DNA of 64,000 nt from Myxococcota bacterium (lineage in GTDB: Bacteria; Myxococcota_A; UBA796; CAJQPC01), in assembly GCA_036012755.1 (NCBI GenBank), contig DASCPX010000009.1, positions 146,880 through 210,879 of the forward strand. The letters are read 5' to 3'. A program made the position numbers and the translations under genes. The notes beneath the pieces were generated by a model, which did not search any database, was not told the DNA's origin, and saw nothing but the letters and a program-made list of their open reading frames with translations. Shown one piece after another: positions 1,906-56,092 of the stretch; within the stretch, counting starts at the first letter, position 1; each line of letters opens with the position of its first letter.

Positions 1906-2775
1906 ATGCTGCTGCTCGCCACGCTCGCATGCAACAAGGACGATGGCAACGACGGGCCCCAGTGGCTCCTGAAGCAGCGCCACGCGGGCCAGCCGCTCGC
2001 CTTGGGCCAGGGCTTCGACCCCTCGGACCCGACGGAGACCTACTTCGCGGCACAACACATCGTGCCCGACCTCTACTACGGAAACTCGCCACCCTCCGAG
2101 ATCCCGCTGATGCTGTGGGAGCACGTGCTCGGAGAGAACATCAGCGATCCTGGGATCTGTCCCTACCTGACCGCGGACGGACCGACGCTGGTCTACGACG
2201 GGAACTGCCGATCCGCCGAGGGCTACGATTTCTCCGGCGAGGTCAGCATCCTGGAGTGGGAGGAGGAAGGCCAGGGCTGGCAACACTGGGACTTCGACAT
2301 CGTGGTGGAGACCGAACTGCCGGACCAGTCCTTCGATCGCATCGGGCTCACCGGAGAGATCTTCTACGGCTCGGCCAACGAGGACATCGGACTCGTCTCG
2401 CACACCCAGACCAACGTGCAGATGGAGTCCGAGGGCTACTGGGCGAACAAGGCGGTCAACGGAGACAACCTCGAGGCGGCCTGGAGCGAGGTCGCCTTCA
2501 CCGGGATCTGGGAGACACAGGATCTGGGGACGCGCACCTACGTCCACGTTGGCGTGCTCGACCTGGGCGACTTCGGTGGCTTCACCTTCCAGACGGAGGG
2601 CCTCGTCGATCAGGGCGCCAGCTGCGTCGGCGAAGCGAAGGGGCGGGTGCAGATCTCCGGCACTGCGGACGCGACCCTCCGCTTCGAAGGCAGCGAGCGC
2701 TGTGATGGGTGCGCCGAGCACACCGCCGAAGGTGCCACCACCCTCGCCTGCGCGAGCCGCGAGTACCTGCTCTAG
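1906..2775 (+). CDS. Cys-rich hypothetical lipoprotein
   Basis: MLLLATLAC lipobox-like start, GC3-rich codons, TATCTT 7 nt upstream; paralogous pattern to 22898..23695. Confidence 0.75.
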   Translation: MLLLATLACNKDDGNDGPQWLLKQRHAGQPLALGQGFDPSDPTETYFAAQHIVPDLYYGNSPPSEIPLMLWEHVLGENISDPGICPYLTADGPTLVYDGNCRSAEGYDFSGEVSILEWEEEGQGWQHWDFDIVVETELPDQSFDRIGLTGEIFYGSANEDIGLVSHTQTNVQMESEGYWANKAVNGDNLEAAWSEVAFTGIWETQDLGTRTYVHVGVLDLGDFGGFTFQTEGLVDQGASCVGEAKGRVQISGTADATLRFEGSERCDGCAEHTAEGATTLACASREYLL

Positions 2776-2845
2776 CGCCCCTCGGCAGAAGTCGCGACGC
2801 GCCTTCCACCGGCGCCTTCGGCGCGCGCCGGGGAGAACTAGATCA
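2772..2845. repeat. Small intergenic repeat element, long copy, flanked by CTAG
   Basis: Ends match 39622-39658; internal 19 nt identical to 15342-15360; CTAG at 2772-2775 and 2838-2841. Confidence 0.65.
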
Positions 2846-3928
2846 CCGAGATGCGCGCTCCACGCGCTCTTCCGGGAGCCAGGTGTTCGGGGCGTAGAAG
2901 TAGTCGGCTTCGTCGTGGGAGATCCAACGCAGCTCGGCGGCCGTCCGGTGTCCGACCCGGAGCTGGTCGAGGCTCTCGACTTCCAGCTCCTCCGACATGC
3001 CGGACGGCCGGTCCACGGCCATGACCTCTGCGTAGCGCTGGGGAAACAGCGGCGCAGCGAGTGGCTCTACGTAGCCCTCGGGGTACTCCGCGAGGAAGGT
3101 GGCAAGGTCGTAGCGGTCGGTGGCACCGAGAGCGTGGGCGATCTCGTGGGCCATCGTCGTGAGCACGTAGGCGACGTTGTCCTCGCTGGCCGAGACGTGG
3201 GCCACCGCCGTCCGACGCTTGGGGTCACCTCGGCTGTCGGCCGCCTGGTCGCTGGTGCCGGGCAAGTAGGCGATGTAGAGACGCACCCCGTAGCTGTCCG
3301 CCTCCACGCCCTGGTCCGCCGCCATGTTCTCCCACCACCACACATAGGAGATGGAGTGCGCGGCACGCGACAAGGTCGGCATGTCCCGCCCGACCGACGG
3401 CGGCTGCAGGGGCACACCCCAGGGCCCCTCGGGGTGCAGCTCCACCCAGGCATCGGAGCGGCCGGTGTAGCGGCGGTATTCGGCGTTGAACCAGTCCTCG
3501 AGCGCCACGATGGCCGTGCCGTCGTTGACCTCCTGGACGATTGGTGCGCCCTGGTCCTCTGGCGCGGCGAACTGCATGACACCGACGTCGATGGTGCCCC
3601 CTCCGAAGAGCAGCGCCTCGTCGTGGGACCGGAACTCCGCGACCTTGAAGATGACCACGGCGAGCAGCAGCACCCATGCCAGCTGGCGGATGCGACGCCA
3701 CCTGCGCCGAGACCTCAGCTCGGGTCCGTCCTCGATCATCCGCGCCACGACGACCTCGGCGCCTGCCCCTCGCAGACGGGTGGCGAGAGCCCGAGCGTCG
3801 GCCTCGCTTCGTGGACGCAACAGCAGCGGGAAGGGACCGATGAGACGATCCGGGAGGAGGTCCCCGAGGGCCTCCAATCCTCCGTCCGGTGGCCCGAGCA
3901 CGACCACCTGCCAGCGCGTGTCCGTCAT
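2843..3928 (-). CDS. Membrane-anchored putative zinc metallopeptidase (HExxH)
   Basis: ATG at 3928 (MTDTRWQ); one TM segment; motif AHEIAHALGATDRY and downstream AEVMA Met-turn-like element. Confidence 0.7.
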   Translation of the reverse strand: MTDTRWQVVVLGPPDGGLEALGDLLPDRLIGPFPLLLRPRSEADARALATRLRGAGAEVVVARMIEDGPELRSRRRWRRIRQLAWVLLLAVVIFKVAEFRSHDEALLFGGGTIDVGVMQFAAPEDQGAPIVQEVNDGTAIVALEDWFNAEYRRYTGRSDAWVELHPEGPWGVPLQPPSVGRDMPTLSRAAHSISYVWWWENMAADQGVEADSYGVRLYIAYLPGTSDQAADSRGDPKRRTAVAHVSASEDNVAYVLTTMAHEIAHALGATDRYDLATFLAEYPEGYVEPLAAPLFPQRYAEVMAVDRPSGMSEELEVESLDQLRVGHRTAAELRWISHDEADYFYAPNTWLPEERVERASR

Positions 3929-3986
3929 GGGTGCTGACACAACCTTGCACCCGCGGAGCCGCAGGACAAGCGATTCCGCGTGGTGG

Positions 3987-5711: not shown

Positions 5712-6272
5712 CTATCGCTGCACCGGCACCTCGGCCCACATCGCGCCGCGCAGATCGCCGACGCCGTAGCCCGTGGCCGCGTCCTCCGGGTAGCGCTCCG
5801 CTAGCAAGGCCGCGACCTCGTCGTCGATGTGGCTGCCGTGGCAGGCGAGGCAGCCGGGCTCGATGCGAATGGGCTTGAGCACGCACGCCTGGCCATCGAT
5901 GATCTCGGACACCCCGGGGGTGTCGGAGTCCGCCTGCTCGAGCCACTCACGGACCCAGGCCGGGCCGGCGTTGTCGGGGTTCCGGAGCTTCGTCGACGCC
6001 CGCCCCGCCTGGCCCCCGCTCTCGGCGGAGATGGCAGCGGTCAGCGCCTGGGCCTCCGTCGAGCACACACCGACGGCAGCGGTCGGGCCACCCTCCCGGA
6101 GGACCTCGACCATGCGCCCCTTCAGGCTCTTTCCGAGCTCGTTCAGGGAGTCGTTGGCCTCTGCGATCGCGCGAGCCTCGGCCGCCGCGTCCTGGACGAC
6201 GGGAGGCTCCGGTGTCGCCGGGGCATCGAGGGCGGGCTCCTGCGTGGAGCATGCACAGAGCAGGATCAGCAT
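5712..6272 (-). CDS. DUF3365/Tll0287-like c-type heme lipoprotein
   Basis: CLACHG heme motif, KLRNPDN, YPEDAATGYGVGDLRG; MLILLCAC lipobox. Confidence 0.85.
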   Translation of the reverse strand: MLILLCACSTQEPALDAPATPEPPVVQDAAAEARAIAEANDSLNELGKSLKGRMVEVLREGGPTAAVGVCSTEAQALTAAISAESGGQAGRASTKLRNPDNAGPAWVREWLEQADSDTPGVSEIIDGQACVLKPIRIEPGCLACHGSHIDDEVAALLAERYPEDAATGYGVGDLRGAMWAEVPVQR

Positions 6273-7293: not shown

Positions 7294-7904
7294 GCACAGA
7301 GGAAGGCCTCCAGGGCGGGAGCGAGCTCGGAGTCGACGAGCTTCGCCGCGAGCGCGTGGAAGCGGAGTATCTCCATGGGATTCTGGCTCCCCAGGTCCTC
7401 GTCCTCGTCGCCGCCGGCAGCGTCCGATACCACTTTCAGCGCGACGAAGGGCAGGCCCGCGTCCAGCGCGCGGATCGCCGAGGCCTCCATCTCGCAGACC
7501 TGCGCCCCGAGGGCGAAGAGCTCAGCGCGGCGCTCGGGCGTCGTGACCGGCTCCGAGACCGTGACGAGGCTGACCGGTGTCGCCCCCGGGACGACGCCCA
7601 GGGTCTCCCATCGGTCCAACACCCGCAGCGCGCAAGCGCTGACGAGGGCGCCGACGGGGAGATCGTCGACCAGGGCACCGCAGGTCCCAAAGCTGACCAG
7701 ATGGGTCGCAGGCCACTCGGCAAGCGTCTCTCGCCCCCGCTCGGCGGCCTTTGCCGGACCGACCCCACAGGTGAGCACTGCGACGTGCTCGCCACCCAGG
7801 CGCCCAGCGACGAGGCGCGGACCCATCACGCGGCCCTGCTCGAGCCGACGCACGACGGGGAGGGTCTCGGCCGCGAGCGCCCCGGCGAGCAGCCAGCGCC
7901 TCAT
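7275..7904 (-). CDS. Nucleoside phosphorylase family protein (PNP_UDP_1, HpnG/MTAN-like)
   Basis: CGVGP..A, VSFGTCGAL, VCEMEASA, LKVVSDAA motifs; start overlaps MMPL stop. Confidence 0.8.
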   Translation of the reverse strand: MRRWLLAGALAAETLPVVRRLEQGRVMGPRLVAGRLGGEHVAVLTCGVGPAKAAERGRETLAEWPATHLVSFGTCGALVDDLPVGALVSACALRVLDRWETLGVVPGATPVSLVTVSEPVTTPERRAELFALGAQVCEMEASAIRALDAGLPFVALKVVSDAAGGDEDEDLGSQNPMEILRFHALAAKLVDSELAPALEAFLCAYSSRE

Positions 7905-10567: not shown

Positions 10568-11776
10568 CTACTCGGATTCGGTCGTGTCCGGCGCGTCCGG
10601 GCTGTTGCGCGCGCTCTTGCGATCCCGACGCCAGGTCCTTCGCTGGACCCGCTCGTCGCGCTTGGTCTTGCCGCCGAAGCGGTAGCTGACCTCTGCGGTG
10701 CTCAGCAGCCAGGCCATGTGCGGCCGCGAGATCCCGAGGCCGAGCCGGATCGACAGGCGCTTGAAGTCCATCTGGTAGGCACCGGAGAGCGAGAAGGTCT
10801 GGGTGACCGGCTGCCAGCCGTCTTCGGCCTCGACGAGGTTGTAGGCCCCGGTCAGCAGGGGGGGAATGCTGGTGTCGTCGCCCTTGGTGCGCTTCCAGAC
10901 CATCGACCGACCCTGGAGGATCAGGCTGTCGCGCCGGTTCAAGCGAAGGTCGATGGCCGCGTGCGCCGAGACCGCGTCGGCCTCCAGCGCGATCGGATCG
11001 ACGTAGACGTCGAGGTCCTCGCTGGTCACCAGCAGCGCCGAGTTGATCTCGGCGAGGTCGGGGAGCCCCTCGAGCCCGATGGCCCAGTAGAGCACCCCGG
11101 CATGGATCCCCACCTTGGGATGAGCGACGACCGACAGGGTGCCGCCAACGGACTGGTAGCGCGCGCCGAAGTCCGACTGCACCAGCATGTAGCGCGAGCC
11201 CTGAAAAGCGAGGTCGACAGGCCCGAGCCGCAGCGGGTCGACCTTGGCGTTGACGTTGTAGAGCCCGATGGCGTCGAGCGGCAGGTTGGTGCCCACCTGG
11301 GTGCGGGGCAGGATGCCGATCTGGAGGTTCGAGAGACCGACCTTCACCTCTCCCCAGTCGAGGGTGTAGGCGGTGAAGTCGGTGTGCGCGTACGGATTCG
11401 GTGGCAGGGCCTTGAGCCGTGGCTTGAGCCAGTCGATCTGGCCCTTCGTCAGGTCCGGGACCTCGAGCGCGTCCGCGGCGACGTCCACTGGCAGCGCCGG
11501 CGCGTCGAACTCCGCCTCGGGCAGCTCCTCGGCGGTCTGGAGCTCCGAGAGGTCGAGGGCCTGCGGCAACTGGGGCTCAGCGGGGGTCTCGGGCTCAGCG
11601 GGGACCTCGGGCTCAGCGGGGACCTCGGGCTCAGCGGGGACCTCGGGCTCACCGGGCGCCTCGAGCTCAACGGGGACCTCGGGCTCCTCCTCCTCCGTGT
11701 CGTCCGTGACCTGCTCGCCAGACCACGCGAGGAGGTCATCGTCGGCAGAGGCCAGGCTGAGCCAGAACCAGAACAC
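10568..11776 (-). CDS. Secreted, possibly outer-membrane beta-rich protein with N-terminal Glu/Pro-rich repeat
   Basis: GTG at 11776 after purine-rich RBS; FWFWLSLASA leader; EPEVPA repeats; alternating beta strands ending EVSYRFGG. Confidence 0.7.
   Translation of the reverse strand: MFWFWLSLASADDDLLAWSGEQVTDDTEEEEPEVPVELEAPGEPEVPAEPEVPAEPEVPAEPETPAEPQLPQALDLSELQTAEELPEAEFDAPALPVDVAADALEVPDLTKGQIDWLKPRLKALPPNPYAHTDFTAYTLDWGEVKVGLSNLQIGILPRTQVGTNLPLDAIGLYNVNAKVDPLRLGPVDLAFQGSRYMLVQSDFGARYQSVGGTLSVVAHPKVGIHAGVLYWAIGLEGLPDLAEINSALLVTSEDLDVYVDPIALEADAVSAHAAIDLRLNRRDSLILQGRSMVWKRTKGDDTSIPPLLTGAYNLVEAEDGWQPVTQTFSLSGAYQMDFKRLSIRLGLGISRPHMAWLLSTAEVSYRFGGKTKRDERVQRRTWRRDRKSARNSPDAPDTTESE
11573..11686. 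repeat. 18-bp coding tandem repeat (GGGCTCAGCGGGGACCTC) encoding EPEVPA
   Basis: About 4 near-perfect plus 2 degenerate copies read directly. Confidence 0.85.
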
Positions 11777-16953: not shown

Positions 16954-18528
16954 CTACCCGCCGCCGCCCCAGAACAGGTAGACCGCGCCCGCCTTCGGGC
17001 CGCCCTCGTCGTTCCAGGCACTGCGAACAGCGAGGTCGTCGAAAGCGTCACCGTTGAAGTCGCCGACGGCGACCTCGCCCAGGAGATCTCCGTCACTCTC
17101 CGCATCGAAGAAAGCGTCCGCGTCGTCGATCGAGATCGTGCCGCTGATCGGTCCGTACAGGAGGTAGACCGTGCCACCATCGCCGTCCGGATCGTCCTCA
17201 GTTCGGGAGGTGAGCGCGATGTCACCAAATCCGTCACCGTCGAGGTCGCCCACATCGAAATAGAAACCGGCGTAGAAACCGGCGTTGTTGCCCTCGACGG
17301 TGCTGGAGGCGGCCTCGGTGAAGGTCATGCGTCCTGTGCTGTCTCCCGAGACGATGTAGATGTTCCCGTAGTCTTCGAACCCCGTGTACGGCGACCCCGC
17401 TACGATGTCGGTGTAGCCGTCTCCATCGGTGTCACCGTGTGCAGAGGGACGCCACCCGGAGTACTCGCCCCCGACCAGACGAAGGTCCTCATCGCCGGAG
17501 CCTCCCGCTCCGTCACCTGCCACGAGCCACCCAGATGCTGGCCCGTGGATGACGAACAGGCCCGGGCTGTTGTCGTTTCGTGGGTCCGAGACCACGAGAT
17601 CACGCAGTCCATCGCCGTCAACATCCCGGGCTTGACTGCCCCGATACCCGATCGAACTTTCTCGCGCCGATGTCACGAACAGGCTCCGGTCGTCCAAGGA
17701 CACCGCCGCAGTGACGGGTCCGGTGACGATGGCTACTGCACCTCCCTTCCACCAGGAGTAGCAGCTCATCGCAAGGTCATCGTGGCCGTCGCCCCCGAAG
17801 TCGCCCACTGGGACGGGGCGCGTACAACTGAAGTCCTCGCCGGTGACCAAGGCATCCTTGACCCGGAAGTCCGGCTTCGCGAGGAGCCCGAAAACGGGGC
17901 CGAAGTGTATTCCCAGGTGCGCCACACCGTCCTCTGGATAGACAGCGCTGGCGACATCCCCAAAGCCGTCACCGTCGATGTCACCCACGCCGTCTCTCAA
18001 CGCGACTCGCGTCCCGTTCCCTTCGGTCCAGCTCGTCGCGGGCGAGTCGATGTGGATCACCCCGCCGCCTGGATTGGGGACGACGTAGGAGAGGACGCCC
18101 ATCACCAACAGATCGTCGACGCCATCGCCGGTGAGATCGTCCACGAACTCCAGGGCGTAGCCGAAATACTCATCGGTCTCCTCCCCGGGGCCCAGGATCT
18201 TGATGTCCGCGTCCGACAGGCTGGTCGTGCCCTCGAGGCGACATTGGGGCTCCGGCTGGTCATCGCAGTCGTTGTCGAGACCGTCCTCGCAGACCTCCTC
18301 CGCGTCCGGGTTGATGGCCGGGTCGGTGTCGTCACAGTCTCCGGCGACGGCGGCGAAGCCGGAGGGCTTCGACGAGGCCTCGGTCGTGTCGTCGTCTACC
18401 CCGAAGCCGTCCCCGTCCCCGTCGCGGAACCAGGTCTCCAGCGGCACATCGCTGTCGGCTGGGCCCACGGAGTCCAAGGTCGGGCTGTCAGACGGCTTGT
18501 TCGTGCAGGCCAGGGCCAGCCACAGCAT
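16954..18528 (-). CDS. Lipoprotein with one MopE-like Cys/Asp repeat and FG-GAP (integrin-alpha-like) propeller
   Basis: MLWLALAC; DCDD..INP.A.EVC.DG.DNDCD; repeated D.DGDG..D Ca-binding loops; GAVYLFWG. Confidence 0.85.
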   Translation of the reverse strand: MLWLALACTNKPSDSPTLDSVGPADSDVPLETWFRDGDGDGFGVDDDTTEASSKPSGFAAVAGDCDDTDPAINPDAEEVCEDGLDNDCDDQPEPQCRLEGTTSLSDADIKILGPGEETDEYFGYALEFVDDLTGDGVDDLLVMGVLSYVVPNPGGGVIHIDSPATSWTEGNGTRVALRDGVGDIDGDGFGDVASAVYPEDGVAHLGIHFGPVFGLLAKPDFRVKDALVTGEDFSCTRPVPVGDFGGDGHDDLAMSCYSWWKGGAVAIVTGPVTAAVSLDDRSLFVTSARESSIGYRGSQARDVDGDGLRDLVVSDPRNDNSPGLFVIHGPASGWLVAGDGAGGSGDEDLRLVGGEYSGWRPSAHGDTDGDGYTDIVAGSPYTGFEDYGNIYIVSGDSTGRMTFTEAASSTVEGNNAGFYAGFYFDVGDLDGDGFGDIALTSRTEDDPDGDGGTVYLLYGPISGTISIDDADAFFDAESDGDLLGEVAVGDFNGDAFDDLAVRSAWNDEGGPKAGAVYLFWGGGG

Positions 18529-18710: not shown

Positions 18711-18770
18711 GAGCTATCGGGGCTCGAGGCTCGGCAGCTGAGACCAACCGGGTGACCGGCCAGTGTGTTC

Positions 18771-19463
18771 TCAAGCTCCGCGCCGCCGGATCACCAGGGC
18801 CCCGAGACCAAAGAGCAGCACCGCGACCAAAGCCAGGCCCATCCACCGGGTCGGCGAGGTCTCCGGCGGCAGCGCCTCCCCGAGCGCCAGCATGCCCTCC
18901 CCGCCGCGAAGCTCGTGCCACTCCAAGGGCCGCCAGGACAGCGAGATCTCGCGCATCTCTTCGTCCATCCGGTAGCGACCGTCGAGGTTGCGCTTCAGGA
19001 CGCCCTGGTCGAAGAAGAGCATCGAGCTGTCGGTGACCGCCAGGGTGGAGTCGACGAGCACCTCGGTCATGAAGTAGCTCAGCTCGTCGGGTCGGTTGCC
19101 GTTGTCCAACTCCAGCTGGTGGGCCCCCGGTCCAAGGTCCAGGCGCAGGGTCTGGTCGTAGTAGACGTACTTGACCGTGCCCTTGGCCTCGCTCTCGACG
19201 CGCTCCCAGTCGACCACCTGGCCGTCCGCCGAGACGCGGAGGTTGTCACGCAGCTCGTCCAGCAGGCGGGCGCTGAAGGCGTCGGCGTCGTCCTGACTCA
19301 GATCCTCACTGACGGCCTGCAGCTCGGCGACGACCTCGTGGGTCGGGAGTCGCACGCCGTAGTCGACCTCCACAGCCTCCGGGAGCACCCGAATCGCGAG
19401 TTGGTGACTGGGGAAGACACCGCCGACCGGATGCGCCAGCGCGACACTCAGCCAGACGAACAC
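18771..19463 (-). CDS. Exported protein with His at mature N-terminus and C-terminal TM anchor
   Basis: GTG at 19463; FVWLSVALA-HP leader; C-terminal hydrophobic helix plus RRR. Confidence 0.7.
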   Translation of the reverse strand: MFVWLSVALAHPVGGVFPSHQLAIRVLPEAVEVDYGVRLPTHEVVAELQAVSEDLSQDDADAFSARLLDELRDNLRVSADGQVVDWERVESEAKGTVKYVYYDQTLRLDLGPGAHQLELDNGNRPDELSYFMTEVLVDSTLAVTDSSMLFFDQGVLKRNLDGRYRMDEEMREISLSWRPLEWHELRGGEGMLALGEALPPETSPTRWMGLALVAVLLFGLGALVIRRRGA

Positions 19464-19502
19464 GGCTTTGCCTCGGGTGGGGGTGCGGTTAGAGCAGGCC
19501 CG

Positions 19503-22865: not shown

Positions 22866-22897
22866 CGCGCGCAGCATGCCACGGCTATGATGGGCCC

Positions 22898-23695
22898 GTG
22901 ATCGTCCTGTTGTCGGCGTGCAACCACATGCACCCCTCGATCCCCAAGGAAGCGGGGACGCTGAGCGCCGAGAGCCTCGCGGACGTCTACCTCGCGGCGA
23001 GCCCCGACACCTTCGTCGGGCTCTACGCCCTGAGCAGGAACGCCTTCGGTGACGACGACACCCCATGCCCGATCGTGACCTCTGACGAGGTCGGCGACTA
23101 CCTCGTCGCCCAGGGCTGCACCGACCGCTGGGGGACGACCTGGCACGGCACGATGAACCGCCTCGATCACGAGGGGATCGCCGAGTACAGCGACTTCGGA
23201 CCCGAGTTCGATGACTGGCGCGGCGCCGCGCACTACCTCGTCGACGGCAAGGTCGAGTGGTCCTATCCCGACACCTCGAACACCTCTGATGTGCGCGTCG
23301 ACACGGACGTCGTCGTCACCTGGAAGGGCGCTGGCGAGGACGTCCTCGTCTACGTCGGCGGCACCGGACGCCACAAGTCGGCGGGCCCCCTGTTGCGGGA
23401 GCGCGATGGGGACATCGGCGTCGCCGACTGGGGCACGGCCGAGGTCAGCCACGGCGAGATCTTCACGGCGGGCACGAAGGGATGCAACCAGGCCATCGAG
23501 GGCCTCGTGGAGGTGTTCGCGGCCAACGACGCGGAGATCCAGCTCCCCAACGGAGATGGCTGCGCCTCGAGTCCGGGCGACGAGCCTTCTCCAACGGACT
23601 GCGCGACCTGGGCGATCGGACAAGAGGACGGGGAGCTTTGTATCGGGACCCGAATGCTCATCGTGCCGACGGATGCGGACGCGCCGACCGACTGA
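22898..23695 (+). CDS. Cys-rich hypothetical lipoprotein
   Basis: MIVLLSAC; TATGAT 6 nt upstream; paralogous pattern to 1906..2775. Confidence 0.7.
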   Translation: MIVLLSACNHMHPSIPKEAGTLSAESLADVYLAASPDTFVGLYALSRNAFGDDDTPCPIVTSDEVGDYLVAQGCTDRWGTTWHGTMNRLDHEGIAEYSDFGPEFDDWRGAAHYLVDGKVEWSYPDTSNTSDVRVDTDVVVTWKGAGEDVLVYVGGTGRHKSAGPLLRERDGDIGVADWGTAEVSHGEIFTAGTKGCNQAIEGLVEVFAANDAEIQLPNGDGCASSPGDEPSPTDCATWAIGQEDGELCIGTRMLIVPTDADAPTD

Positions 23696-24897: not shown

Positions 24898-25602
24898 TCA
24901 CATCGCGCCGTCGCTGAACTTCGAGTTGTCCATCGGCGCGCCGTCACCGTCGACGTCGATGCCCTCCTGTCGCGCGAGCTCCAGGATGTCCTCGATGTCG
25001 GTGGGGTTGCGCTGGCCGGGGTCACCGTAGACGCCGAGGCCCTCCGCCTCCAGGCGCAGAGAGGCCGGCGCGCGCTGTCCCCTCTCCCCGTACTCGGCGG
25101 TGCGTGTGTTGTCCGTCGCGCGAGTGGGGTAGACCGCGCAGTCGAGCACCAGGTCCCCGACGTCCGCGTCCAGGTCCATCGCACGGCCGTGCGGATCAGC
25201 GAAGAAGGGCGCCTCCTCCAGCGAGGGCAGCCCGTCACCGTCGGCGTCGCGCCAGGCGAGCAGCAGGCGCGCACGGCCGAGGGGCACCTTCACGGAGAAC
25301 TCTCCCGGAGCGTCGAGGACCACCTCGCTGAGGAAGCCGCTGCGCGGGTGGGAGTCGAAGCGGCGGTTGGCGTCGTCCGGGTGCGGCGGGAAGACGCGGA
25401 CATGGAGCGGACCCTCCTGGTCGCAAGCGAGGCTCCCGCTGAGGGTCACGACGTCGTCCCTCGAGGCGAGGTCCTCCTGGCTGAAGCGAGGCAGCTCGGG
25501 AGTCCTCAGGGGCTCCGAGACGACCTGGACCTCCTCCTCGAGTCCGAGGTCGACGACCTCGGTCTCGCCAGGACCGTTGCAGGCGATGAGCGAGAAGATC
25601 AC
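24898..25602 (-). CDS. Hypothetical lipoprotein
   Basis: MIFSLIAC, GGAG RBS, DADGDG loop. Confidence 0.7.
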   Translation of the reverse strand: MIFSLIACNGPGETEVVDLGLEEEVQVVSEPLRTPELPRFSQEDLASRDDVVTLSGSLACDQEGPLHVRVFPPHPDDANRRFDSHPRSGFLSEVVLDAPGEFSVKVPLGRARLLLAWRDADGDGLPSLEEAPFFADPHGRAMDLDADVGDLVLDCAVYPTRATDNTRTAEYGERGQRAPASLRLEAEGLGVYGDPGQRNPTDIEDILELARQEGIDVDGDGAPMDNSKFSDGAM

Positions 25603-33666: not shown

Positions 33667-33700
33667 TTCAAACCCCGGCTACGACGGATACCCTCACCGC

Positions 33701-36655
33701 ATGTTCCTGCTCGCCCTCGCCTGCCTGAAGCCAAAGCCCATCCTCCAGGAGAGCGGCACAGAGGAAGAGACCGTCATCGACGATGACGAAGACGGCTTCC
33801 CTGCCGAAGACGACTGCGACGACCTCGACGCCGCGGTGAACCCGGACGCGGAAGAGGTCTGCAACGGCATCGACGACAACTGCGACGAGGTCGTCGACAC
33901 CGACGCCACCGATCAGGGCACCTGGTACGTCGACGGCGACAGCGACGGCCACGGCGACCCCGATCTGGAACTCCAGGCCTGCGATCAGCCCAGCGGCTAC
34001 GTCGCCGCCAACGACGACTGCGACGACACCGAGCCCACGGTGCACGCCGGCGCCACCGAGCTCTGCGACCACCTCGACAACGACTGCGACGGCGAGACCG
34101 ACGAAGACGGGCTGACCTGGTGGTTCCTCGACGCCGACAGCGACGGCTACGGTGACATCGAGGACCCCGGCGAGGAGACCTGCGGCATGCCCGAGGGCAA
34201 GGTCGCCGACAACACGGACTGTGACGACGAGCGCTTCGAGACGAACCCGGGCGCTTTCGAATACTGCAACGACATCGACGACGACTGCGACGGCGTCATC
34301 GACCCGGACAGCTCCGTCGACGCGACCACCTGGTACGTCGACGCCGACAGCGACGGCTACGGCTCGACCGCCTTCCCGAGCGCGACCCAGTGCGAGCAGC
34401 CCGACGGCTACGTCACGGACAACACCGACTGCGACGACCTGGATGAGCAGGTCTTCCCCGGGGCCGACGAGTATTGCAACACCTACGACGACGACTGCGA
34501 CGGCATCACGGACGAGGACAGCGCCGTCGACGCGACGACCTGGTACGAGGACGCGGACGTGGACGGCTACGGCAACGCCTCCAGCCGAGATGTCCAGTGC
34601 ACCCAGCCCACCGGCTACGTCTCGAACTCGATGGACTGCGACGACACCAACGCCGCCGTGAGTCCCGACGCTCCGGAGCTCTGCTCGACCTCCGACGACG
34701 ACGACTGCGACGGAGACGTCAACGAGGACGACGCGGCGGACACGACGACCTGGTACGACGACGATGACTCGGACGGCTACGGGGACTCCGGGGACAGCCA
34801 GACAGCCTGCGACCGGCCCTCCGGCCACGTCACGACCTCTGGGGACTGCGACGACACGGACTCGGACACCAACCCCGGCGCCGACGAGTACTGCGACGGG
34901 CACGACGACGACTGTGACGGCGACGTCGACGAGGACGACGCGGTGGACGCCACGACCTGGTACGGCGACGACGACTCCGACGGCTTTGGCGAGGACGCAG
35001 ACTCCACGACCGCCTGCGACCAGCCCAGCGGCTACGAGCCCAAGGGCGGGGACTGCGACGACAGCGACGACGACATCTACCCAGGCGCCGACGAGTACTG
35101 CAACACCGAGGACGACGACTGCGACGGCGACGTCGACGAGGACGACGCCCTGGACGTCTCGACCTTCTACGCCGACACCGACGGCGACGGCTACGGTGAC
35201 GCCAGCTCGACCAACGACCAGTGCTACGCGGACTCCTCCTACGTCTCCGACGACACGGACTGTGACGACAGCGACTACGACGTGAACCCGGGCGCGACAG
35301 AGGTCTGCGGCAACGGCATCGACGACGACTGCGACGAGGAGATCGGCAGCGACTGCGGGCCCTACGGCACGGTGTCGCTGAACGACGCGGAGGCCAAGAT
35401 CACGGGGGAGAGCAGCTACGACTACCTCGGGCGGTCGGTCGCCGGAGGGGACCTCGACGGGGACGGGTACGCGGACCTGGTCGCGACCTCGATGTACCTG
35501 GCCTACTACGGCGCAGAGAACTACGTCTTCCTAGGCCCGATCTCCGGGGAGATCGACGCGGGTGACGCCGACATCATCATCGAAGGCGACAGCGGAGTCG
35601 GCCAGGACGCGGTGATCGTCGGAGACCTCGACGGCGACGGCGTGGACGACCTGGTCCTGTCGGGCCCCAACTACCCCTACCTGGGCGCCACCAGCAACGC
35701 CCAGCGGGGCGGGATCTTCTTCTTCTTCGGGCCGACCACCGGCGAGTGGGACCAGGACGACGCTGACGCCGTGGTGCTGGGTGACGAGAGCTACGACGGC
35801 TTCGGCTACCGGGTGGCCGAGGCCGGGGACGCCGACGGCGACGGCTACGACGACCTCTGGACCTCGAGCATCACCTACAAGAACGACTACGGCTCGGCGA
35901 TCCTCCTGCAAGGTCCCTTCTCCGGGAGCTCCTCGGGCGCCTCGATCTACGTCTACGACAGCTCCAACTACACCTACGCCGGCACGGATCTCGACGGCTC
36001 TGGAGACACCAACGGCGACGGGGCGAACGACCTGGTGGTCGGGGCGCCGTCCTCTGACGAGGCGTGGGTCGTGCTGGGACCCGTCACGACCTCGACCGAG
36101 GTGGGCGATGTCGACGCGGTGCTCACGGGATCGAGCGGCGGCTACGCCGGCACCTCGAGCGTCTTCCTTCCCGACGCCAACGGAGACGGCTACGACGAGG
36201 TCGTCATCGGCGCGCCCTACGAGGACAGCTACCGGGGCAACGTCTACATCGTCAACGGCCCCGTCAGCGCGGACGCGACGCTGTCATCGGACGCGGACGC
36301 GACCCTCAACGGCCCCAGCAGCGGCTACGGCGGCTACACCCTGACGGCCTGCGATATCGACGGAGACGGCAACGGAGACGTCGTCGCCGGAGCGCCGGCC
36401 ACCGGCTCCTACAAGGGCAAGATCTACCTCTTCCTCGGACCGGTCACCGGCACGATGAACATGGCCGCGAACGCGGACGGCATCCTCACCGGCGAGGCCG
36501 CTGGCGACTACGCCAGCTACTACGAAGGCCTGGCCTGCGGCGGGGATCATGACGCGGACGGCTACGAAGACATCGTTGTCGGCGCCCCGTACGAAGACAC
36601 AGGGGGAACCAACGCCGGCGCGGCCTACGTCGTCCTTGGAGGAGGAGGCCTGTAG
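33701..36655 (+). CDS. Lipoprotein adhesin-like: MopE-like repeats + FG-GAP propeller (984 aa)
   Basis: MFLLALAC; 8 DCDD...E.C...DDDCDG units with WY.D.D.DGYG linkers; C-terminal FG-GAP repeats. Confidence 0.9.
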   Translation: MFLLALACLKPKPILQESGTEEETVIDDDEDGFPAEDDCDDLDAAVNPDAEEVCNGIDDNCDEVVDTDATDQGTWYVDGDSDGHGDPDLELQACDQPSGYVAANDDCDDTEPTVHAGATELCDHLDNDCDGETDEDGLTWWFLDADSDGYGDIEDPGEETCGMPEGKVADNTDCDDERFETNPGAFEYCNDIDDDCDGVIDPDSSVDATTWYVDADSDGYGSTAFPSATQCEQPDGYVTDNTDCDDLDEQVFPGADEYCNTYDDDCDGITDEDSAVDATTWYEDADVDGYGNASSRDVQCTQPTGYVSNSMDCDDTNAAVSPDAPELCSTSDDDDCDGDVNEDDAADTTTWYDDDDSDGYGDSGDSQTACDRPSGHVTTSGDCDDTDSDTNPGADEYCDGHDDDCDGDVDEDDAVDATTWYGDDDSDGFGEDADSTTACDQPSGYEPKGGDCDDSDDDIYPGADEYCNTEDDDCDGDVDEDDALDVSTFYADTDGDGYGDASSTNDQCYADSSYVSDDTDCDDSDYDVNPGATEVCGNGIDDDCDEEIGSDCGPYGTVSLNDAEAKITGESSYDYLGRSVAGGDLDGDGYADLVATSMYLAYYGAENYVFLGPISGEIDAGDADIIIEGDSGVGQDAVIVGDLDGDGVDDLVLSGPNYPYLGATSNAQRGGIFFFFGPTTGEWDQDDADAVVLGDESYDGFGYRVAEAGDADGDGYDDLWTSSITYKNDYGSAILLQGPFSGSSSGASIYVYDSSNYTYAGTDLDGSGDTNGDGANDLVVGAPSSDEAWVVLGPVTTSTEVGDVDAVLTGSSGGYAGTSSVFLPDANGDGYDEVVIGAPYEDSYRGNVYIVNGPVSADATLSSDADATLNGPSSGYGGYTLTACDIDGDGNGDVVAGAPATGSYKGKIYLFLGPVTGTMNMAANADGILTGEAAGDYASYYEGLACGGDHDADGYEDIVVGAPYEDTGGTNAGAAYVVLGGGGL

Positions 36656-36664
36656 ACTGGAGCA

Positions 36665-39619
<2,955 letters not shown>

Positions 39620-39621: not shown

Positions 39622-39658
39622 CCCCTCGGCAGAACTCGCGCCGGAGAGAACTAGATCA
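39622..39658. repeat. Small intergenic repeat element, short copy
   Basis: CCCCTCGGCAGAACTCGCG-CCGGAGAGAACTAGATCA matches both ends of 2778-2845 with 2 mismatches. Confidence 0.65.
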
Positions 39659-44861: not shown

Positions 44862-45506
44862 ATGTCCATGCGTTTCTTTGCTGTCGCTCTTGCCGCCGGT
44901 CTCACCTTCTCCAGCACCGCCCTCGCCGGAGACGACGAAGAGTACGCCGAGATCAACGACTCCACGATGGTCGCCGACTTCAACGGCACCTGGGCCAAGG
45001 CCAAGGAAGTCCAGTCCACCGTCTCCAGCTGGGAGGACAACCTGAACTCCGCCCGCGAAGGCTTCAACGAGGCCGTCGGCATCGCCAAGGACGAGCCCAT
45101 CGACAAGGGTATCGAGCACTTCAAGACCCTCGCTGGTGACTCGCTCAAGGTCGCCCTCGACGGTGGCAACCCCACGATCACCGTCGACGACGCCGCCCCG
45201 GACAACGTCAAGGCCGCCGCGGAAGCCCTCAAGGGCTGCGTGGCTGCCGCCCAGGACATCGTCGAGAGCGGTCCGAAGATCGTCGAACAGAGCAAGGCAG
45301 TCGGCGAGGAGGCTGCGGCCATCCCCGGGCAGCTGAACCCCTCCTTCTTCAAGGACAACGGCATCAAGAGGCCGGGCGACATCAAGACCGCCACCAAGGA
45401 GCAGAAGGACAACGTCTCCGCGACCAAGGCCACCGACGAGCGCGTCAAGGGCGTCATCACGGAGGCCACCGCCATCGTCGACGGCGTCAAGGCCCTCGCA
45501 GGCTGA
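44862..45506 (+). CDS. Secreted alpha-helical Ala/Lys-rich hypothetical protein
   Basis: MRFFAVALAAGLTFSSTALA signal peptide; strongly biased codons. Confidence 0.8.
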   Translation: MSMRFFAVALAAGLTFSSTALAGDDEEYAEINDSTMVADFNGTWAKAKEVQSTVSSWEDNLNSAREGFNEAVGIAKDEPIDKGIEHFKTLAGDSLKVALDGGNPTITVDDAAPDNVKAAAEALKGCVAAAQDIVESGPKIVEQSKAVGEEAAAIPGQLNPSFFKDNGIKRPGDIKTATKEQKDNVSATKATDERVKGVITEATAIVDGVKALAG

Positions 45507-47423: not shown

Positions 47424-47432
47424 AATCCGGCG

Positions 47433-51359: not shown

Positions 51360-53075
51360 TCACAGCTCGGCAGTGCTCTCGGCCCGGCGGATGATGCCGA
51401 CCGCGCGGTCGCCGATCTCCTCGAGGTGGGTCAGGGCGTCCAGGAAGGCCAGCCCCCTGCGCAGCCCCTCCTCGCCGGACTTCATGCGCTGGATCGTCTC
51501 TTCGCGGAGCTCCCTCCGGCGCGCGTCGATGGCGTTCTCGTGCGCCTCGGCGGCGGCGGGGTCGCCCTGGCCGGCGAGGTAGGCACCGCTGTGTTCCATG
51601 GCCGTCCCGACCATGGCGGCGAAGTCACGGAGCTTGTCCATCTCGACGGGCGAGAAGCGCTGGTTCCTGTCGTGCACCCGCTGCGCGATGCGCACCAGCG
51701 TCGCGATGTGGTCAGCGATGCGCTCGAGGCGGTGGGTGTTTTGGATGAGCTCCGCGATCTTGCGCGAGGCCTGGGCCGACGTCGCCGCCCTGGCGCAGAG
51801 GGAGAGGTGCCTCTGGATCTCGCGCTCCATGTCGTCGATCTGGTCTTCGCGCTGGAGCGTGATCCTCACGAGCTTGCCGAGATCCTCGTCCGGACTCGCC
51901 AGGATGTGCGTGGCATCCGTGAGCATCTGACGCGTGATGCCGGCGATGTGCTGGAGCTCCTGGCCGACCTGGATCAGGACGAGCTCGGGGGTCTCGACGA
52001 AGGTGGCGCCGGCGACCAGGAACCGGAGCCGCTCGACGGGGGCTTCGGAGTCGTCGTCCTTGATCCAGCGCAGGGCGATCTTCTCCAGCTGCTTCACGAA
52101 GCCGACCATCAACAGCGTGTTGACGACGTTGAAGACGCTGTGGAAGGCCGCCAGGTGCGTCGTGACGACGCTGCGGGCGTCGGCGACGGCGGCGTCCTGT
52201 CCCTGGAGGAGGGCGAAGTCGACGTTGGGGTCGCCGGGGACCATCCAGTCGATGACCGGTAGCAGCACGAGCCCCATCAACAACAGGGCCCAGGTGACAC
52301 CGAAGATGTTGAAGAGGAAGTGGACCCGCGCCGCCCGCACCGCGTCTCTGGATGCCCCGATGGCCGCCAGGTTCGCGGTGATGGTGGTCCCGATGTTCTC
52401 GCCGAGCACCGTCGCGGCGGCGAGCTCGTAGGGCAGCCAGCCCAGCGCCGCGAGCGTCAGCGTCAGCGTCATCGTCGCAGAGGACGACTGCAGCACCACC
52501 GTCAGCAGCGTCCCGATGGCCACGAAGAGGACAACGCTGCCGAAGCCATAGCCAGAGACGGCCTGCACCCAGGCGAGGTCCTCTGGGCTGCCGATGTCGG
52601 GCACGGCGTCCTTGAGCAGGCCGAGACCGATGAACAACAGCCCGAATCCGAGGAGCGCCTCGCCCCACTGACGGACGCGCGCCCCCTTCAGGAAGCTCAT
52701 GGCGAAGCCGACGCCGCAGGCCGGGAGGGCGAAGGCGGTGATCTTGACCTTGAAGCCGAGCACCGCGACGAGCCAGCCCGTCAGGGTCGTGCCGATGTTG
52801 GCGCCCATGATGACGCCGATGGCCTGGGTCAGCGTGAGCAACCCCGCGGTGACGAAGCCGACGACCATCACCGTGGTGGCAGAGGACGACTGGACGACGC
52901 AGGTCACCGTGAGACCCGTGAGCACGCCGCTGAAGCGGTTCCCCGTGATGCGGGCCAGGAGCGACTTCATGCGGTCGCCTGCCACCTTCTGGAGCCCCTC
53001 TGACATGACCTTCATGCCGAAGAGGAAGATCCCCAGTGCGCCGAGGAGCTGGAAGAGTGTAGAGACCCACGCCAT
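51360..53075 (-). CDS. Na/Pi cotransporter with PhoU-like C-terminus
   Basis: Two QSSSAT motifs, GANIGTT/GENIGTT, LERIADH. Confidence 0.9.
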   Translation of the reverse strand: MAWVSTLFQLLGALGIFLFGMKVMSEGLQKVAGDRMKSLLARITGNRFSGVLTGLTVTCVVQSSSATTVMVVGFVTAGLLTLTQAIGVIMGANIGTTLTGWLVAVLGFKVKITAFALPACGVGFAMSFLKGARVRQWGEALLGFGLLFIGLGLLKDAVPDIGSPEDLAWVQAVSGYGFGSVVLFVAIGTLLTVVLQSSSATMTLTLTLAALGWLPYELAAATVLGENIGTTITANLAAIGASRDAVRAARVHFLFNIFGVTWALLLMGLVLLPVIDWMVPGDPNVDFALLQGQDAAVADARSVVTTHLAAFHSVFNVVNTLLMVGFVKQLEKIALRWIKDDDSEAPVERLRFLVAGATFVETPELVLIQVGQELQHIAGITRQMLTDATHILASPDEDLGKLVRITLQREDQIDDMEREIQRHLSLCARAATSAQASRKIAELIQNTHRLERIADHIATLVRIAQRVHDRNQRFSPVEMDKLRDFAAMVGTAMEHSGAYLAGQGDPAAAEAHENAIDARRRELREETIQRMKSGEEGLRRGLAFLDALTHLEEIGDRAVGIIRRAESTAEL

Positions 53076-53189: not shown

Positions 53190-54569
53190 ATGCGCAAGCT
53201 CACCATCTCTCTGTCAATGTTGGCCACCGTGGCCGCCCTCGCGCCGGCGTGCGGCGACAAGGAGCCCAAAGACAGCGGCTGGACCGAAGGCGACACCGAC
53301 TCGGACACCGACGCAGACACCGACACCGACACCGACGCCGACGCCGACTCGGACACCGACGCCGACACCGACTCGGACACCGACACCGACGCCAACACCG
53401 AGATCTACAAGGCTCGGACGGGCGAGTACACCGCGGGCGACGGCTCCGGCGACCCGCTCGGCGACGAGGTCACCATCGAGGGCGTGGTCGTCGGCTCGGA
53501 GGCGCTCTACGGCTTCTTCGTCCAGGACGGCTACAGCGGCCCCTACCACGGCGTCTACGTCTACACGGGCTCCAGCCTGACCGCCGGCGTCGCCGAGGGT
53601 GACTGGGTCGAGGTCACCGGAACCGTCGAGGAGTACATGGGCTCCGGCAGCACCGATACCCTGACGGAGATCTGGATCGCGGACGCAGCAGGCCTCACGG
53701 TCAGCGGAACCTCCGAGGTCCCGGCGGCCGAGGTGCTCGCCACCTCTGAGCTCGCCGACGGTGCCACGGCCGAGGGCTACGAGAGCATGCTGGTGAAGGT
53801 CGAGAACGTCACCGTCGTCGAGGCCGACCTCGGCTACGGCGAGTGGAGCGTCGGCGACGGCGTGCGGATCGACGACCTCTTCGAGCCAGAGACCCCCTGG
53901 GACGTGCTCTACGCTGGCGACCAGCTCACCGGCGTCTCAGGCGTGCTGTACTACAGCTTCGACAGCTTCAAGATCGAGCCCCGGACCACGGACGACTACG
54001 AGGGCCACAGCTCCACCGGCCCGATCTGCAACGCCGACACCTGCGCAGAGGACCTGGCCCCCGGCGACCTCGTCGTGACCGAAGCCATGATGGACCCCCA
54101 GACCGGATCGGATGACTACTGCGAGTGGATCGAGGTCTACAACGCCAGGAGCGGCTCGGTCGATCTCGCCCGCGTGCTCGTGGTGGACAGCGCCGCCAAC
54201 ACCGGCACCGTCGCCGACGAGACCATCGTCGGCGCCGGGGAGTACGCCGTCATCGCGCGCACGACCGAGGCGGACTTCGCCGCGAACTGCGCGACGCTGG
54301 CCGCGGTCTTCACCCCGGACGGCTACTACGGCTCGAACCCGGCCCTGAACAACGGCGGTGACACCATCGCGCTGACGACGCCGGACAGCTCGGTGACCAT
54401 CGACTCGACGGCCGACTACGGCTCGCAGGACTGCGCGCAGGTCACCGGCACAAGCGCTGGCGACAACGACGACACCGCCGACTGGTGTGCCTGCGACACG
54501 GAGCTCGCCACCGACGGATCGGACACGGACTACGGCACCCCGGGCGCCGCGAACTCCGCCTGCCCCTAG
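53190..54569 (+). CDS. Lipoprotein with Asp/Thr-rich linker, OB-fold-like and lamin-tail-like domains
   Basis: APAC lipobox; VTIEGVV..GFFVQD, YESMLVKV; LVVTEAM.DP..EWIEVYN, LNNGGD, GTPGAAN. Confidence 0.85.
   Translation: MRKLTISLSMLATVAALAPACGDKEPKDSGWTEGDTDSDTDADTDTDTDADADSDTDADTDSDTDTDANTEIYKARTGEYTAGDGSGDPLGDEVTIEGVVVGSEALYGFFVQDGYSGPYHGVYVYTGSSLTAGVAEGDWVEVTGTVEEYMGSGSTDTLTEIWIADAAGLTVSGTSEVPAAEVLATSELADGATAEGYESMLVKVENVTVVEADLGYGEWSVGDGVRIDDLFEPETPWDVLYAGDQLTGVSGVLYYSFDSFKIEPRTTDDYEGHSSTGPICNADTCAEDLAPGDLVVTEAMMDPQTGSDDYCEWIEVYNARSGSVDLARVLVVDSAANTGTVADETIVGAGEYAVIARTTEADFAANCATLAAVFTPDGYYGSNPALNNGGDTIALTTPDSSVTIDSTADYGSQDCAQVTGTSAGDNDDTADWCACDTELATDGSDTDYGTPGAANSACP
53292..53399 (+). 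repeat. Low-complexity (GAC-NCN)n repeat encoding DTDSDTDAD...
   Basis: About 17 D-x dipeptides read directly. Confidence 0.85.
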
Positions 54570-54589
54570 AACCTGGATAGGAGTCACGC

Positions 54590-56092
54590 ATGTGGCTCCT
54601 CATCCTGGCTTGTTCCGAGACCCCCGACCGCGTCGTGCACGGGGTCGGCATCAAAGACGGGCGGATCGTCTCCATCGATCCGCCCGCAGACGGCATCGTC
54701 GTCACTCCCGGACTCATCGACGCACACGCCCACCCCGCTGGAGTGGGGCGCAAGCTCGCACAGCTCGATCTCTCTGGGACTGCCTCGCTGTCCGAGGTCC
54801 AAGCCCGAGTCGCCGAGGCTGCGGCCGAGGGCGAGGGCTGGCTTGCCGGTCGAGGCTGGGACCAGAACGACTGGTCCGATCACGAGGGCTGGCCCACCGC
54901 CGAGCAGCTGGACCACGCGAGCCGTCCGGTGGCGCTGCGGCGGGTGGACGGACACGCCCTCTGGGTGAACACGGCAGGCCTGGAGGCAGCGCGCATCACG
55001 CCACAGAGCCCGGACCCCGCAGGCGGACGCATCCTCCGGGACGAAGCGGGCAACCCGACCGGGGTGCTCATAGACGCGGCTGTCGGCCTGGTCGAGCTGC
55101 CGAAGCCCTCTGTGGACGAGCAGCGCCGCCGGCTCGTAGAGGCCCTCGATCACATCGCCGCCTCCGGCCTCGTCGGCGTTCACGACATGGGCGTCTCCGA
55201 CCAGACGCTGGCCCTCTACGAGGAGCTCGCCGCCGCCGGAGAGCTGCCGATCCGGATCTGGGCCTTCCTGGACCCCGGCGCGGAGGCGGTCACCCGGCTG
55301 AAGTCGGAGGGTCCCTGGCAGGTGGGCCACCTGCGGGTCGCCGGTGTGAAGATGTACGCCGACGGCGCCCTCGGCTCCCGCGGCGCTCTGCTCAGCGAGG
55401 ACTACAGCGACGAGCCCGGGACCGTGGGCATCGAGATCAACGGCACGCTCGACCTCGCGGACATGGCGACCGACCTGCTCGCGGTGCGTGCACAGCTCGC
55501 GGTCCACGCCATCGGAGACCGCGGGATCGGAAACGCGCTCGATGCCTTCGAGCAGGCCCGTGCGGCCCAGCCCGCAGCGAACGACGTGCCGCTCCGCATC
55601 GAACACCTCCAGGTCGTGCGCCCGGAAGACCTGGCGAGGATGCCCGGGCTCAACGCGGTCGCCTCGATGCAGCCCACCCACGCCACGAGCGACGGGCCCT
55701 GGGCCGAGTCCCGGCTGGGCCCGGACCGCGTGGAGTGGTCCTACGCCTGGCGCGACGTCCTCGATGCGGGCGTCGTCCTGGCCTTCGGCAGCGACTTCCC
55801 GGTCGAAGAGGTCTCCCCCGCCTTCGGCCTGTGGTCGGCGACGACGAGAGCGGACACCGAGGGTGGGGAGGGATGGCGGACCGAGCACAACCTCGACTTC
55901 GACGAGGCTGTCGCGGCGTTCTCCTCGGGAACCTACGCCGCCCTCGGAGAGACCGGCGGCGCGCTCGAGCCGGGCTCCGTGGCCGACCTCTGCGTCTGGC
56001 GGGTCGAGCAGCGCTTCGGTCGCGACTGGTTCGAGCCCATCGAGGTCGTCGTCGCCGGCGAGACCGTCTTCCTCGACGATCGGCCTCGCTGA
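54590..56092 (+). CDS. Amidohydrolase 3 family (YtcJ-like) lipoprotein
   Basis: PGLIDAHAH, DGHALWVN, KMYADGALGSRGA, HAIGD, RIEH, SMQPTH, GSDFP. Confidence 0.9.
   Translation: MWLLILACSETPDRVVHGVGIKDGRIVSIDPPADGIVVTPGLIDAHAHPAGVGRKLAQLDLSGTASLSEVQARVAEAAAEGEGWLAGRGWDQNDWSDHEGWPTAEQLDHASRPVALRRVDGHALWVNTAGLEAARITPQSPDPAGGRILRDEAGNPTGVLIDAAVGLVELPKPSVDEQRRRLVEALDHIAASGLVGVHDMGVSDQTLALYEELAAAGELPIRIWAFLDPGAEAVTRLKSEGPWQVGHLRVAGVKMYADGALGSRGALLSEDYSDEPGTVGIEINGTLDLADMATDLLAVRAQLAVHAIGDRGIGNALDAFEQARAAQPAANDVPLRIEHLQVVRPEDLARMPGLNAVASMQPTHATSDGPWAESRLGPDRVEWSYAWRDVLDAGVVLAFGSDFPVEEVSPAFGLWSATTRADTEGGEGWRTEHNLDFDEAVAAFSSGTYAALGETGGALEPGSVADLCVWRVEQRFGRDWFEPIEVVVAGETVFLDDRPR

Follow-up and report, generated by a model that had tools for sequence, protein, structure and literature searches.

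Uncharged, leucine-dense short leaders on predicted exported proteins of an uncultured Myxococcota bacterium

The stretch of DNA analysed here (the window; 64,000 nucleotides, 69% G+C) lies on contig C9 of the 6.7-Mb, 250-contig assembly of an uncultured Myxococcota bacterium. The genomes closest to it are likewise uncultured and carry the labels Myxococcota, Myxococcales, Deltaproteobacteria or Proteobacteria. In this bacterium, the predicted export signal of most lipoproteins and of many secreted proteins has only about 7-10 hydrophobic, uncharged residues, about one third of the textbook length. A textbook signal peptide combines a basic n-region with a hydrophobic core that is long enough for the lateral gate of SecY. 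The short N-termini are probably genuine Sec signal peptides that were compressed, to a degree graded by lineage, into a Leu-dense core plus cleavage box and are handled by the standard enzymes, a reading supported so far by computation. In a limited literature search, no published description of such leaders was found.

Short leaders in the window and throughout the genome

Genes are named below by the position of their start codon and their strand, and coordinates are collected in Table 1. The preliminary description of the window had quoted eight lipoprotein-type N-termini, all of which were reproduced (MLLLATLAC, MLILLCAC, MLWLALAC, MIVLLSAC, MIFSLIAC, MFLLALAC, MVLLVFLAC and MWLLILAC). 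Short leaders of the signal peptidase I (SPI) type had been added for 76-, 11776- and 19463-. Their sequences were recovered in all three cases, and a GAGG resembling a Shine-Dalgarno (SD) sequence precedes 11776- and 19463-; the start of 76- proved ambiguous, as an in-frame GTG 9 codons upstream would yield the canonical-looking MRALLVPGSMLLLLLDVASA. Pfam assigned one window protein to Amidohydro_3 and one to the Tll0287-like family (6272-), the latter with the c-type heme motif CxxCH at residue 141 that had been remarked on before, and three proteins with FG-GAP and MopE-type motifs were likewise confirmed. Such cargo, together with a cytochrome c encoded elsewhere in the genome, is of the extracytoplasmic type and therefore counts for an export signal.

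The genome-wide distribution of first-Cys positions, which had been proposed as a check, was determined for 4477 open reading frames (ORFs) closed at the 5' end, as delivered by a simple, crude codon-bias caller. ATG, GTG and TTG were considered as start codons, and the farthest such codon in frame was taken as the longest possible start. From this start, the first Cys fell at positions 7, 8, 9 and 10 in 120, 209, 130 and 116 ORFs, respectively, with the peak at position 8 and a background of 39-61 ORFs at positions 2-6 and 41-65 at positions 13-20. The excess of short leaders is far above chance: a short-leader motif, defined as Met followed by 5-9 uncharged hydrophobic residues and [AGS]C, was present at 377 of 4477 first starts versus 185 of 75877 internal in-frame start-like codons, a 35-fold enrichment.

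Among 665 lipobox candidates, again read from the farthest start, the Cys stood at position 7 in 58, at 8 in 129, at 9 in 74 and at 10 in 54; in 344 it never lies beyond position 11, whichever ATG, GTG or TTG is chosen. A canonical leader could be taken by 143 candidates, and 73 are readable only as long leaders with Lys or Arg. Within the window, the gene directly upstream of 54590+ carries the canonical leader MRKLTISLSMLATVAALAPAC. Because of the 73 candidates and MRKLTISLSMLATVAALAPAC, the "minimal signal-peptide code" suggested for this lineage is not a separate code, since canonical basic leaders coexist with the short ones; what stood is the minimal form as such, which occurs genome-wide in leaders for SPI and for signal peptidase II (SPII), is kept in the family and replaces normal leaders.

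Whereas the h-region of SPII signal peptides usually holds 7 or more residues before the lipobox, most leaders here amount to 7-10 residues in total. Their lipobox is regular. In the Cys-8 class (152 ORFs), position -1 is Ala, Ser or Gly in 146 and position -3 is Leu in 99, and the Leu at -2 in 110 of the 152 is unusual but allowed. A positively charged n-region is missing from most leaders, with Lys or Arg occurring in 14% of 237, and in the 344 short leaders K and R contribute 0.00 of the core composition each. Leu makes up 55% of the core residues in the short class (n = 344) versus 23% in the genome's own canonical class (n = 73); thus, hydrophobic density rises as length falls. An uncharged hydrophobic hexamer directly at the start was seen in 641 of the 4477 ORFs, 376 with and 265 without a lipobox. 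The latter extend the trait to short SPI-type leaders, which end in A-x-A-like sites and include MLLLVATALA/QD, MTLLFLSMASA/QD and that of a cytochrome c, MILPVLLALGTAEA/ADADK...CMACH (a slash marks the predicted cleavage point).

According to the proposed scheme, Sec-type signal peptides for both SPII and SPI would have been worn down to the hydrophobic core and the cleavage box. A lipoprotein leader would then consist of Met, 4-6 mostly Leu residues, one residue of Ala, Gly or Ser, and Cys, the basic n-region being lost and only the N-terminal Met remaining before the core. The very high Leu density may compensate for the short core, and the acidic first 20 residues of the mature protein may supply charge asymmetry across the membrane, while ordinary Sec and signal recognition particle (SRP) components, Lgt, LspA and Lnt would process short and canonical leaders alike. 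Export, lipidation and cleavage of the short-leader proteins are thereby predicted.

Like the Lpp-type SPII signal peptide of Escherichia coli, these leaders are N-terminal, have a hydrophobic core, a lipobox with invariant Cys and Ala, Gly or Ser at -1, and a polar, Pro/Ser/Thr/Asp-rich mature start, and Lgt, LspA and Lnt are encoded; unlike it, they have no basic n-region, by the low share of Lys and Arg given above, and their core is richer in Leu, at 55%. In engineered poly-Leu signal peptides of the 1990s, extra hydrophobicity reportedly offsets the lost N-terminal positive charge. Those peptides are said to share the Leu-dense core without a basic residue, but with cores of 8-10 residues or longer and of laboratory making, whereas the cores described here have 5-6 residues, are natural and occur on hundreds of proteins.

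The homologue of BamD (YfiO; G000:C149:39893-40549, minus strand) was considered as an essential-lipoprotein test case. It has no lipobox Cys and starts with the uncharged SPI-type leader MFALLLTLSLPAVAA/KNQ, so it is uninformative on lipoproteins, though in line with the general trend.

Start signals and assignment of the N-termini

Six of the eight lipoprotein-type starts in the window (6272-, 22898+, 25602-, 33701+, 36665+ and 54590+) are the first ATG, GTG or TTG after a stop codon, so that these six proteins cannot be longer with common start codons. For three of them an in-frame stop four codons upstream had been described as a bound on the N-terminus, and it is present in each case (TAA for 6272-, TAG for 36665+ and 54590+). 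Between the upstream stop and 33701+, 47 codons hold no ATG, GTG or TTG. The two others could be extended: a TTG at 1897 would lengthen 1906+ by 3 residues (MHRM...), and an ATG at 18591 would give 18528- 21 extra Arg-rich residues.

Across the genome, a stop exactly three codons before the start was found in 521 of 4477 ORFs versus 128-216 at each neighbouring distance. TAG accounts for 362 of these 521 upstream stops, though TGA terminates 3047 of the 4477 genes. The hexamer TANNNT begins at exactly -12 at 269 of 4474 first starts, 67 of the 377 short leaders among them, compared with 38, 13 and 14 at the other in-frame offsets -15, -9 and -6 and at most 71 at any other offset; the ORF definition favours TAG and TAA at -12, which partly explains the dominance of TAG in the hexamer. 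At 250 box sites without SD, G occupies position -14 in 62%. TANNNT at -12 with G at -14 has the geometry of an extended -10 element, and the transcript would accordingly begin on the start codon itself. A stop so often found four codons upstream would then belong to a TAGNNT -10 box at -12, which suggests leaderless mRNAs. The in-frame stop is better read in this way, and the -10 box then supports the same start assignment as the stop argument. The distance of the box is that of leaderless mRNAs, and the mRNA class is a candidate assignment from this geometry; with 250 candidates lacking an SD, leaderless-type promoters seem to be common genome-wide.

In the window, the hexamers TATGAT (22898+), TACCCT (33701+) and TAGACT (36665+) stand at -12 and are candidate -10 boxes; TATCTT before 1906+ stands at -13. 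The TAG that closes the paralogue at 33701..36655 forms the first letters of the TAGACT hexamer before 36665. For Streptomyces, which also has high-GC DNA, a TANNNT -10 box and 22% leaderless mRNAs have been published (PMC8780764). The box described here is likewise placed such that transcription would begin at the start codon; unlike in Streptomyces, TAG dominates the hexamer and ATG is not preferred as start codon. Several cytoplasmic-looking genes of the window also have TAGNNT 12-13 nucleotides before the start, namely TAGAAT at 47421-47426 (ATG at 47433) and the boxes of 7901-10558(-), 39651-40946(-), 41151+, 42900+ and 51360-53075(-).

The short N-termini might also result from mis-assigned starts, the real ones being longer through non-canonical codons (CTG, ATT), frameshifting or use of an open frame upstream. 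Such room exists in about a third of the 377 short-leader ORFs, whose frame extends upstream by more than 20 open codons (20 or fewer in 250 of 366), and for the window cases 18528- and 76- longer alternatives were pointed out above; 162 of the 377 also lack both start signals. In 123 of the 377, however, 3 or fewer codons separate the upstream stop from the start, and 215 have a start signal at the right distance (64 with TANNNT at exactly -12 and no SD, 151 with an SD core and no box). Moreover, the short leaders form one homogeneous motif class whose length peak was measured from the farthest possible start, and elsewhere in the family, orthologues and paralogues likewise combine a short leader with an adjacent stop. 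Reassignment of the upstream stop codons was ruled out, as the TAG at 36653 is a working stop that terminates the upstream paralogue at the same 984 amino acids. We consider mis-assigned starts highly improbable.

Phylogenetic gradient, export machinery and SecY

Within the family, the amidohydrolase encoded at 54590 has orthologues and paralogues that start with MWSIFLAC, MNALLFLAC, MILLAC, MLILALLAC, MLLLFAC and MWFLLAC, often with a stop three codons upstream, and another Myxococcota relative starts with MVVWALLAC. Copies from other families of the order begin with MMRSLLALALVGC, MMNRRTVAWVGWTAVILLGC and MKTPGLPPRLLLLLNVAAC. Orthologues from Bacteroidota, Gemmatimonadota and Acidobacteriota have ordinary leaders of 18-30 residues with Lys or Arg (78 loci from many phyla, judged by eye and uncounted), and these classical lipoprotein leaders end at the aligned Cys. 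The protein family is thus exported elsewhere, and only its leader has shrunk in the present lineage.

The same direction of change was obtained when 40-280 kb from each of 16 other genomes with lipobox candidates were read with one fixed start rule. The present genome has a median Cys position of 9, with 78% at or before position 11 and Lys or Arg in 14% of leaders (n = 237). Within the family, the median is 10 and 11 in genus g7 (n = 16 and 5), and 14 and 13.5 in genera g3 and g5, with Lys or Arg in about 46% (n = 21 and 22). Other families of the order show medians of 14-16 with Lys or Arg in 57-100% (n = 5-11), and other orders and classes of the phylum show medians of 15-25 (n = 1-9). The trait is therefore graded along the phylogeny from the genome through family and order to the phylum.

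A further alternative accepts the N-termini as called and denies them the role of a cleaved lipoprotein signal; they could, for example, serve as a peripheral membrane tether, or the Cys could stay unlipidated. Cleavage and acylation are predictions, seven residues cannot span a bilayer, and Leu at -2 is reportedly less usual in the E. coli lipobox. The residue at -1 is nevertheless Ala, Gly or Ser in nearly all of the Cys-8 class, and the Cys, invariant here by construction, is conserved on orthologues, which elsewhere end their classical leaders at the aligned position. Among the cargo are a c-type heme protein and Cys-rich FG-GAP/MopE proteins, all of which depend on the periplasm; SPI-type partners with A-x-A-like sites exist, and Lgt, LspA and Lnt are present. 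An uncleaved or unlipidated N-terminus is thus very unlikely.

Several points weigh against compressed Sec signal peptides. No signal peptide with a core as short as 5-6 residues is known to work in E. coli. The acidic mature region is shared by both leader classes: the net charge of mature residues +2 to +21 is -3.2 behind short and -2.9 behind canonical leaders, against -1.0 in the background, and the acidic N-terminus, though real, was accordingly rejected as the sole compensating feature. Neither start signal precedes 162 of the 377 short leaders, and the 250 leaderless candidates do not prefer ATG (122 ATG, 121 GTG, 7 TTG). The crude caller overlooked some real genes (22898+, 11776- and 19463-), and the samples from other genomes are small (1-22 candidates each), with start choice by rule of thumb.

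The preliminary description had further raised the possibility of an adapted SRP/Sec/Lgt/LspA machinery. For the most part this was not borne out, as the export and lipoprotein machinery is complete and ordinary: the genome encodes Ffh, an FtsY-like protein, SecY, SecA, Lnt, three SPI enzymes, two LspA and five Lgt-like genes, so that all processing enzymes (Lgt, LspA and Lnt) are accounted for. Both LspA copies keep the catalytic motifs GN..DR and FN.AD (for the catalytic dyad see PMC9360617). Duplication of LspA was rejected as an adaptation, since two copies are common across the order and present elsewhere in the phylum, and so was the multiplicity of Lgt, with 3-5 copies in the family, 2-5 in the order and 1-6 in the phylum. 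Compared with solved LspA structures, the enzyme of this class has about 13 additional residues between the two catalytic-Asp motifs (L028:1495-2596, loci L237-L252). This insertion is not trait-specific either: every sampled member of the class has it, even those with ordinary leaders, and four other sampled members of the phylum lack it. The copy numbers and the insertion thus follow phylum and class, and position I187 of SecY, which changes order-wide, is the sole positive lead. A tandem lspA-lspA-lgt-lgt cluster is located outside the window (G000:C59:99943-102645), with further lgt-like genes on C203, C40 and C127; judging by coordinates, similar lspA/lgt neighbourhoods occur in other genomes of the order and the phylum.

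SecY was compared with 17 relatives, using E. coli numbering from alignment to 5abb_A. I187 is replaced by Ala or Ser in 12 of 12 genomes of the order and is Ile or Met in 6 of 6 outside it. In the present genome the other five pore-ring isoleucines, F67 and F286 are unchanged, F286 also in all six genomes of the family. A degenerate motif scan of 301 phylum genomes, which misses known positives (G004, G006, G040), found the Ala/Ser form in 21 of 44 genomes of the order, in 0 of 14 from the other orders of its class and in 2 of the remaining 243, each of which has a hydrophobic copy as well, at a different locus. Outside the order, 175 of 257 genomes matched the hydrophobic form; inside it 6 of 44 did, 3 of those 6 not at the main secY locus; three genomes of the order (G032, G282, G312) match the hydrophobic form only.

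The isoleucine ring includes I187, and suppressors of the prlA type at the ring positions I191, I278 and I408 are thought to ease channel opening, with none named at I187 itself in the available parts of the sources (PMC2171872; PMC8082313). With its substituted pore ring the order's SecY resembles the prlA (secY) alleles of E. coli, in a lineage that tolerates defective-looking signals; relaxed export as such is putative. In contrast to those alleles, the change is natural, fixed and order-wide, and it affects I187. A prlA-like relaxation of the channel, by a small residue where the ring usually has a bulky Ile, could have made the channel less demanding towards signal peptides and let the leaders erode, which would be an addition to the compression of Sec leaders and not a replacement for it. 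The distribution of Ala or Ser in the order and the motif scans agree with this idea, apart from the missed and hydrophobic-only genomes named above. However, the substitution is order-wide and the extreme shortening confined to part of one family, so that the channel is at most permissive and not sufficient, and leaders in the other families of the order (median 14-16, with Lys or Arg) are no shorter than in two genomes that lie outside the order and have Ile or Met at this site (G080, median 15; G093, 15.5; n = 4-11). As a single event on the tree, the change does not lend itself to statistics. We therefore regard a permissive channel as a tentative and unlikely contribution. Quite unlikely, when taken as a whole, is a longer series in which the order fixed a small SecY pore-ring residue (a natural prlA-like channel) and leaders eroded from about 20 residues to about 15 with one Arg, to about 10 uncharged and finally to 7, with formyl-Met, five leucines and a lipobox being enough for Sec targeting, Lgt and LspA in this genus.

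Two other SecY features were dismissed: the Lys-rich C-terminal tail is not family-specific, as every lineage has a basic tail, and position q181 (Ile to Val) is a conservative change with Val codons also outside the order. In some genomes the SecY motif occurs at two loci with different pore-ring codons (G004:C127:96824, G014:C18:31399, G209:C103:26952, G258:C1, G196:C70), which suggests a second SecY-like gene there; the present genome has a single SecY match.

If export and lipidation are confirmed, the known minimum for recognition by Sec, SRP, Lgt and LspA would be lowered, and the organism would offer a test of how little a bacterial export signal needs. The graded series of family, order and phylum would then be a natural experiment on the trade-offs between length and Leu density, between n-region charge and an acidic mature start, and possibly with a relaxed pore ring. 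Were the series of SecY relaxation true as well, it would set a new natural lower limit for the signal peptide and provide an evolutionary series for finding what Sec truly needs. Very short leaders could also serve protein engineering. Standard rules probably miss much of this bacterium's envelope proteome; with export and lipidation confirmed, rule-based and trained predictors, as well as start callers that prefer longer ORFs, would annotate a large part of the envelope proteome wrongly in these uncultured Myxococcota, which are abundant.

Genes of the window

The short-leader genes of the window and two comparators with canonical leaders are listed in Table 1.

Table 1. Genes with short or canonical leaders in the window; a slash marks the predicted cleavage point.
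Coordinates	Strand	Feature	Start context
1..76	-	5' end of a 123-aa gene running off the window, SPI-type leader MLLLLLDVASA/ES	Alternative in-frame GTG 9 codons upstream
1906..2775	+	Lipoprotein-type gene, leader MLLLATLA/C (Cys 9), 289 aa, no Pfam family	TATCTT at -13..-8 before ATG
5712..6272	-	Tll0287-like (PF11845) lipoprotein, leader MLILLCA/C (Cys 8), CxxCH at residue 141	TAA 4 codons upstream; GAGG-type SD at about -9
10568..11776	-	402-aa gene, GTG start, SPI-type leader MFWFWLSLASA/DDD	GAGGAAGAG upstream; earlier in-frame GTG at 11833
16954..18528	-	FG-GAP/MopE-motif lipoprotein, leader MLWLALA/C (Cys 8), ambiguous start	Without SD or -10 signal
18771..19463	-	230-aa gene, GTG start, SPI-type leader MFVWLSVALA/HPV	GAGG at about -11; frame open further upstream
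22898..23695	+	Lipoprotein-type gene, GTG start, leader MIVLLSA/C (Cys 8), no Pfam family	TATGAT at -12..-7 (22886..22891), G at -14
24898..25602	-	Lipoprotein-type gene, GTG start, leader MIFSLIA/C (Cys 8), no Pfam family	SD-like GGAGAG upstream
33701..36655	+	984-aa lipoprotein with FG-GAP and 8 MopE motifs, leader MFLLALA/C (Cys 8), first tandem paralogue	TACCCT at -12..-7 (33689..33694), G at -14
36665..39619	+	984-aa FG-GAP/MopE-motif lipoprotein, leader MVLLVFLA/C (Cys 9), second tandem paralogue	TAGACT at -12..-7 (36653..36658)
44862..45506	+	Comparator, canonical SPI-type leader MSMRFFAVALAAGLTFSSTALA/GDD	-
53190..54569	+	Comparator lipoprotein, canonical leader MRKLTISLSMLATVAALAPA/C (Cys 21, basic n-region)	N-terminus from TTG 53169; Met of MRKL 7 codons in
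54590..56092	+	Amidohydro_3 (PF07969) lipoprotein, leader MWLLILA/C (Cys 8)	TAG 4 codons upstream within TAGGAG; SD AGGAG at -11..-7

The tandem paralogues at 33701-39619 have 35 Cys each, and each combines 8 MopE-type metal-binding motifs with FG-GAP repeats. A sub-threshold TcdB_toxin_midN line in Pfam for the second paralogue, 36665+ (21.2 bits, cut-off 24.8), was taken as repeat similarity. At 18765-20225 the caller had picked an Arg-rich ORF on the plus strand, while the 230-aa gene on the minus strand (18771-19463), with its short SPI leader, looks more protein-like; the case illustrates that shadow ORFs in high-GC DNA can hide short-leader genes.

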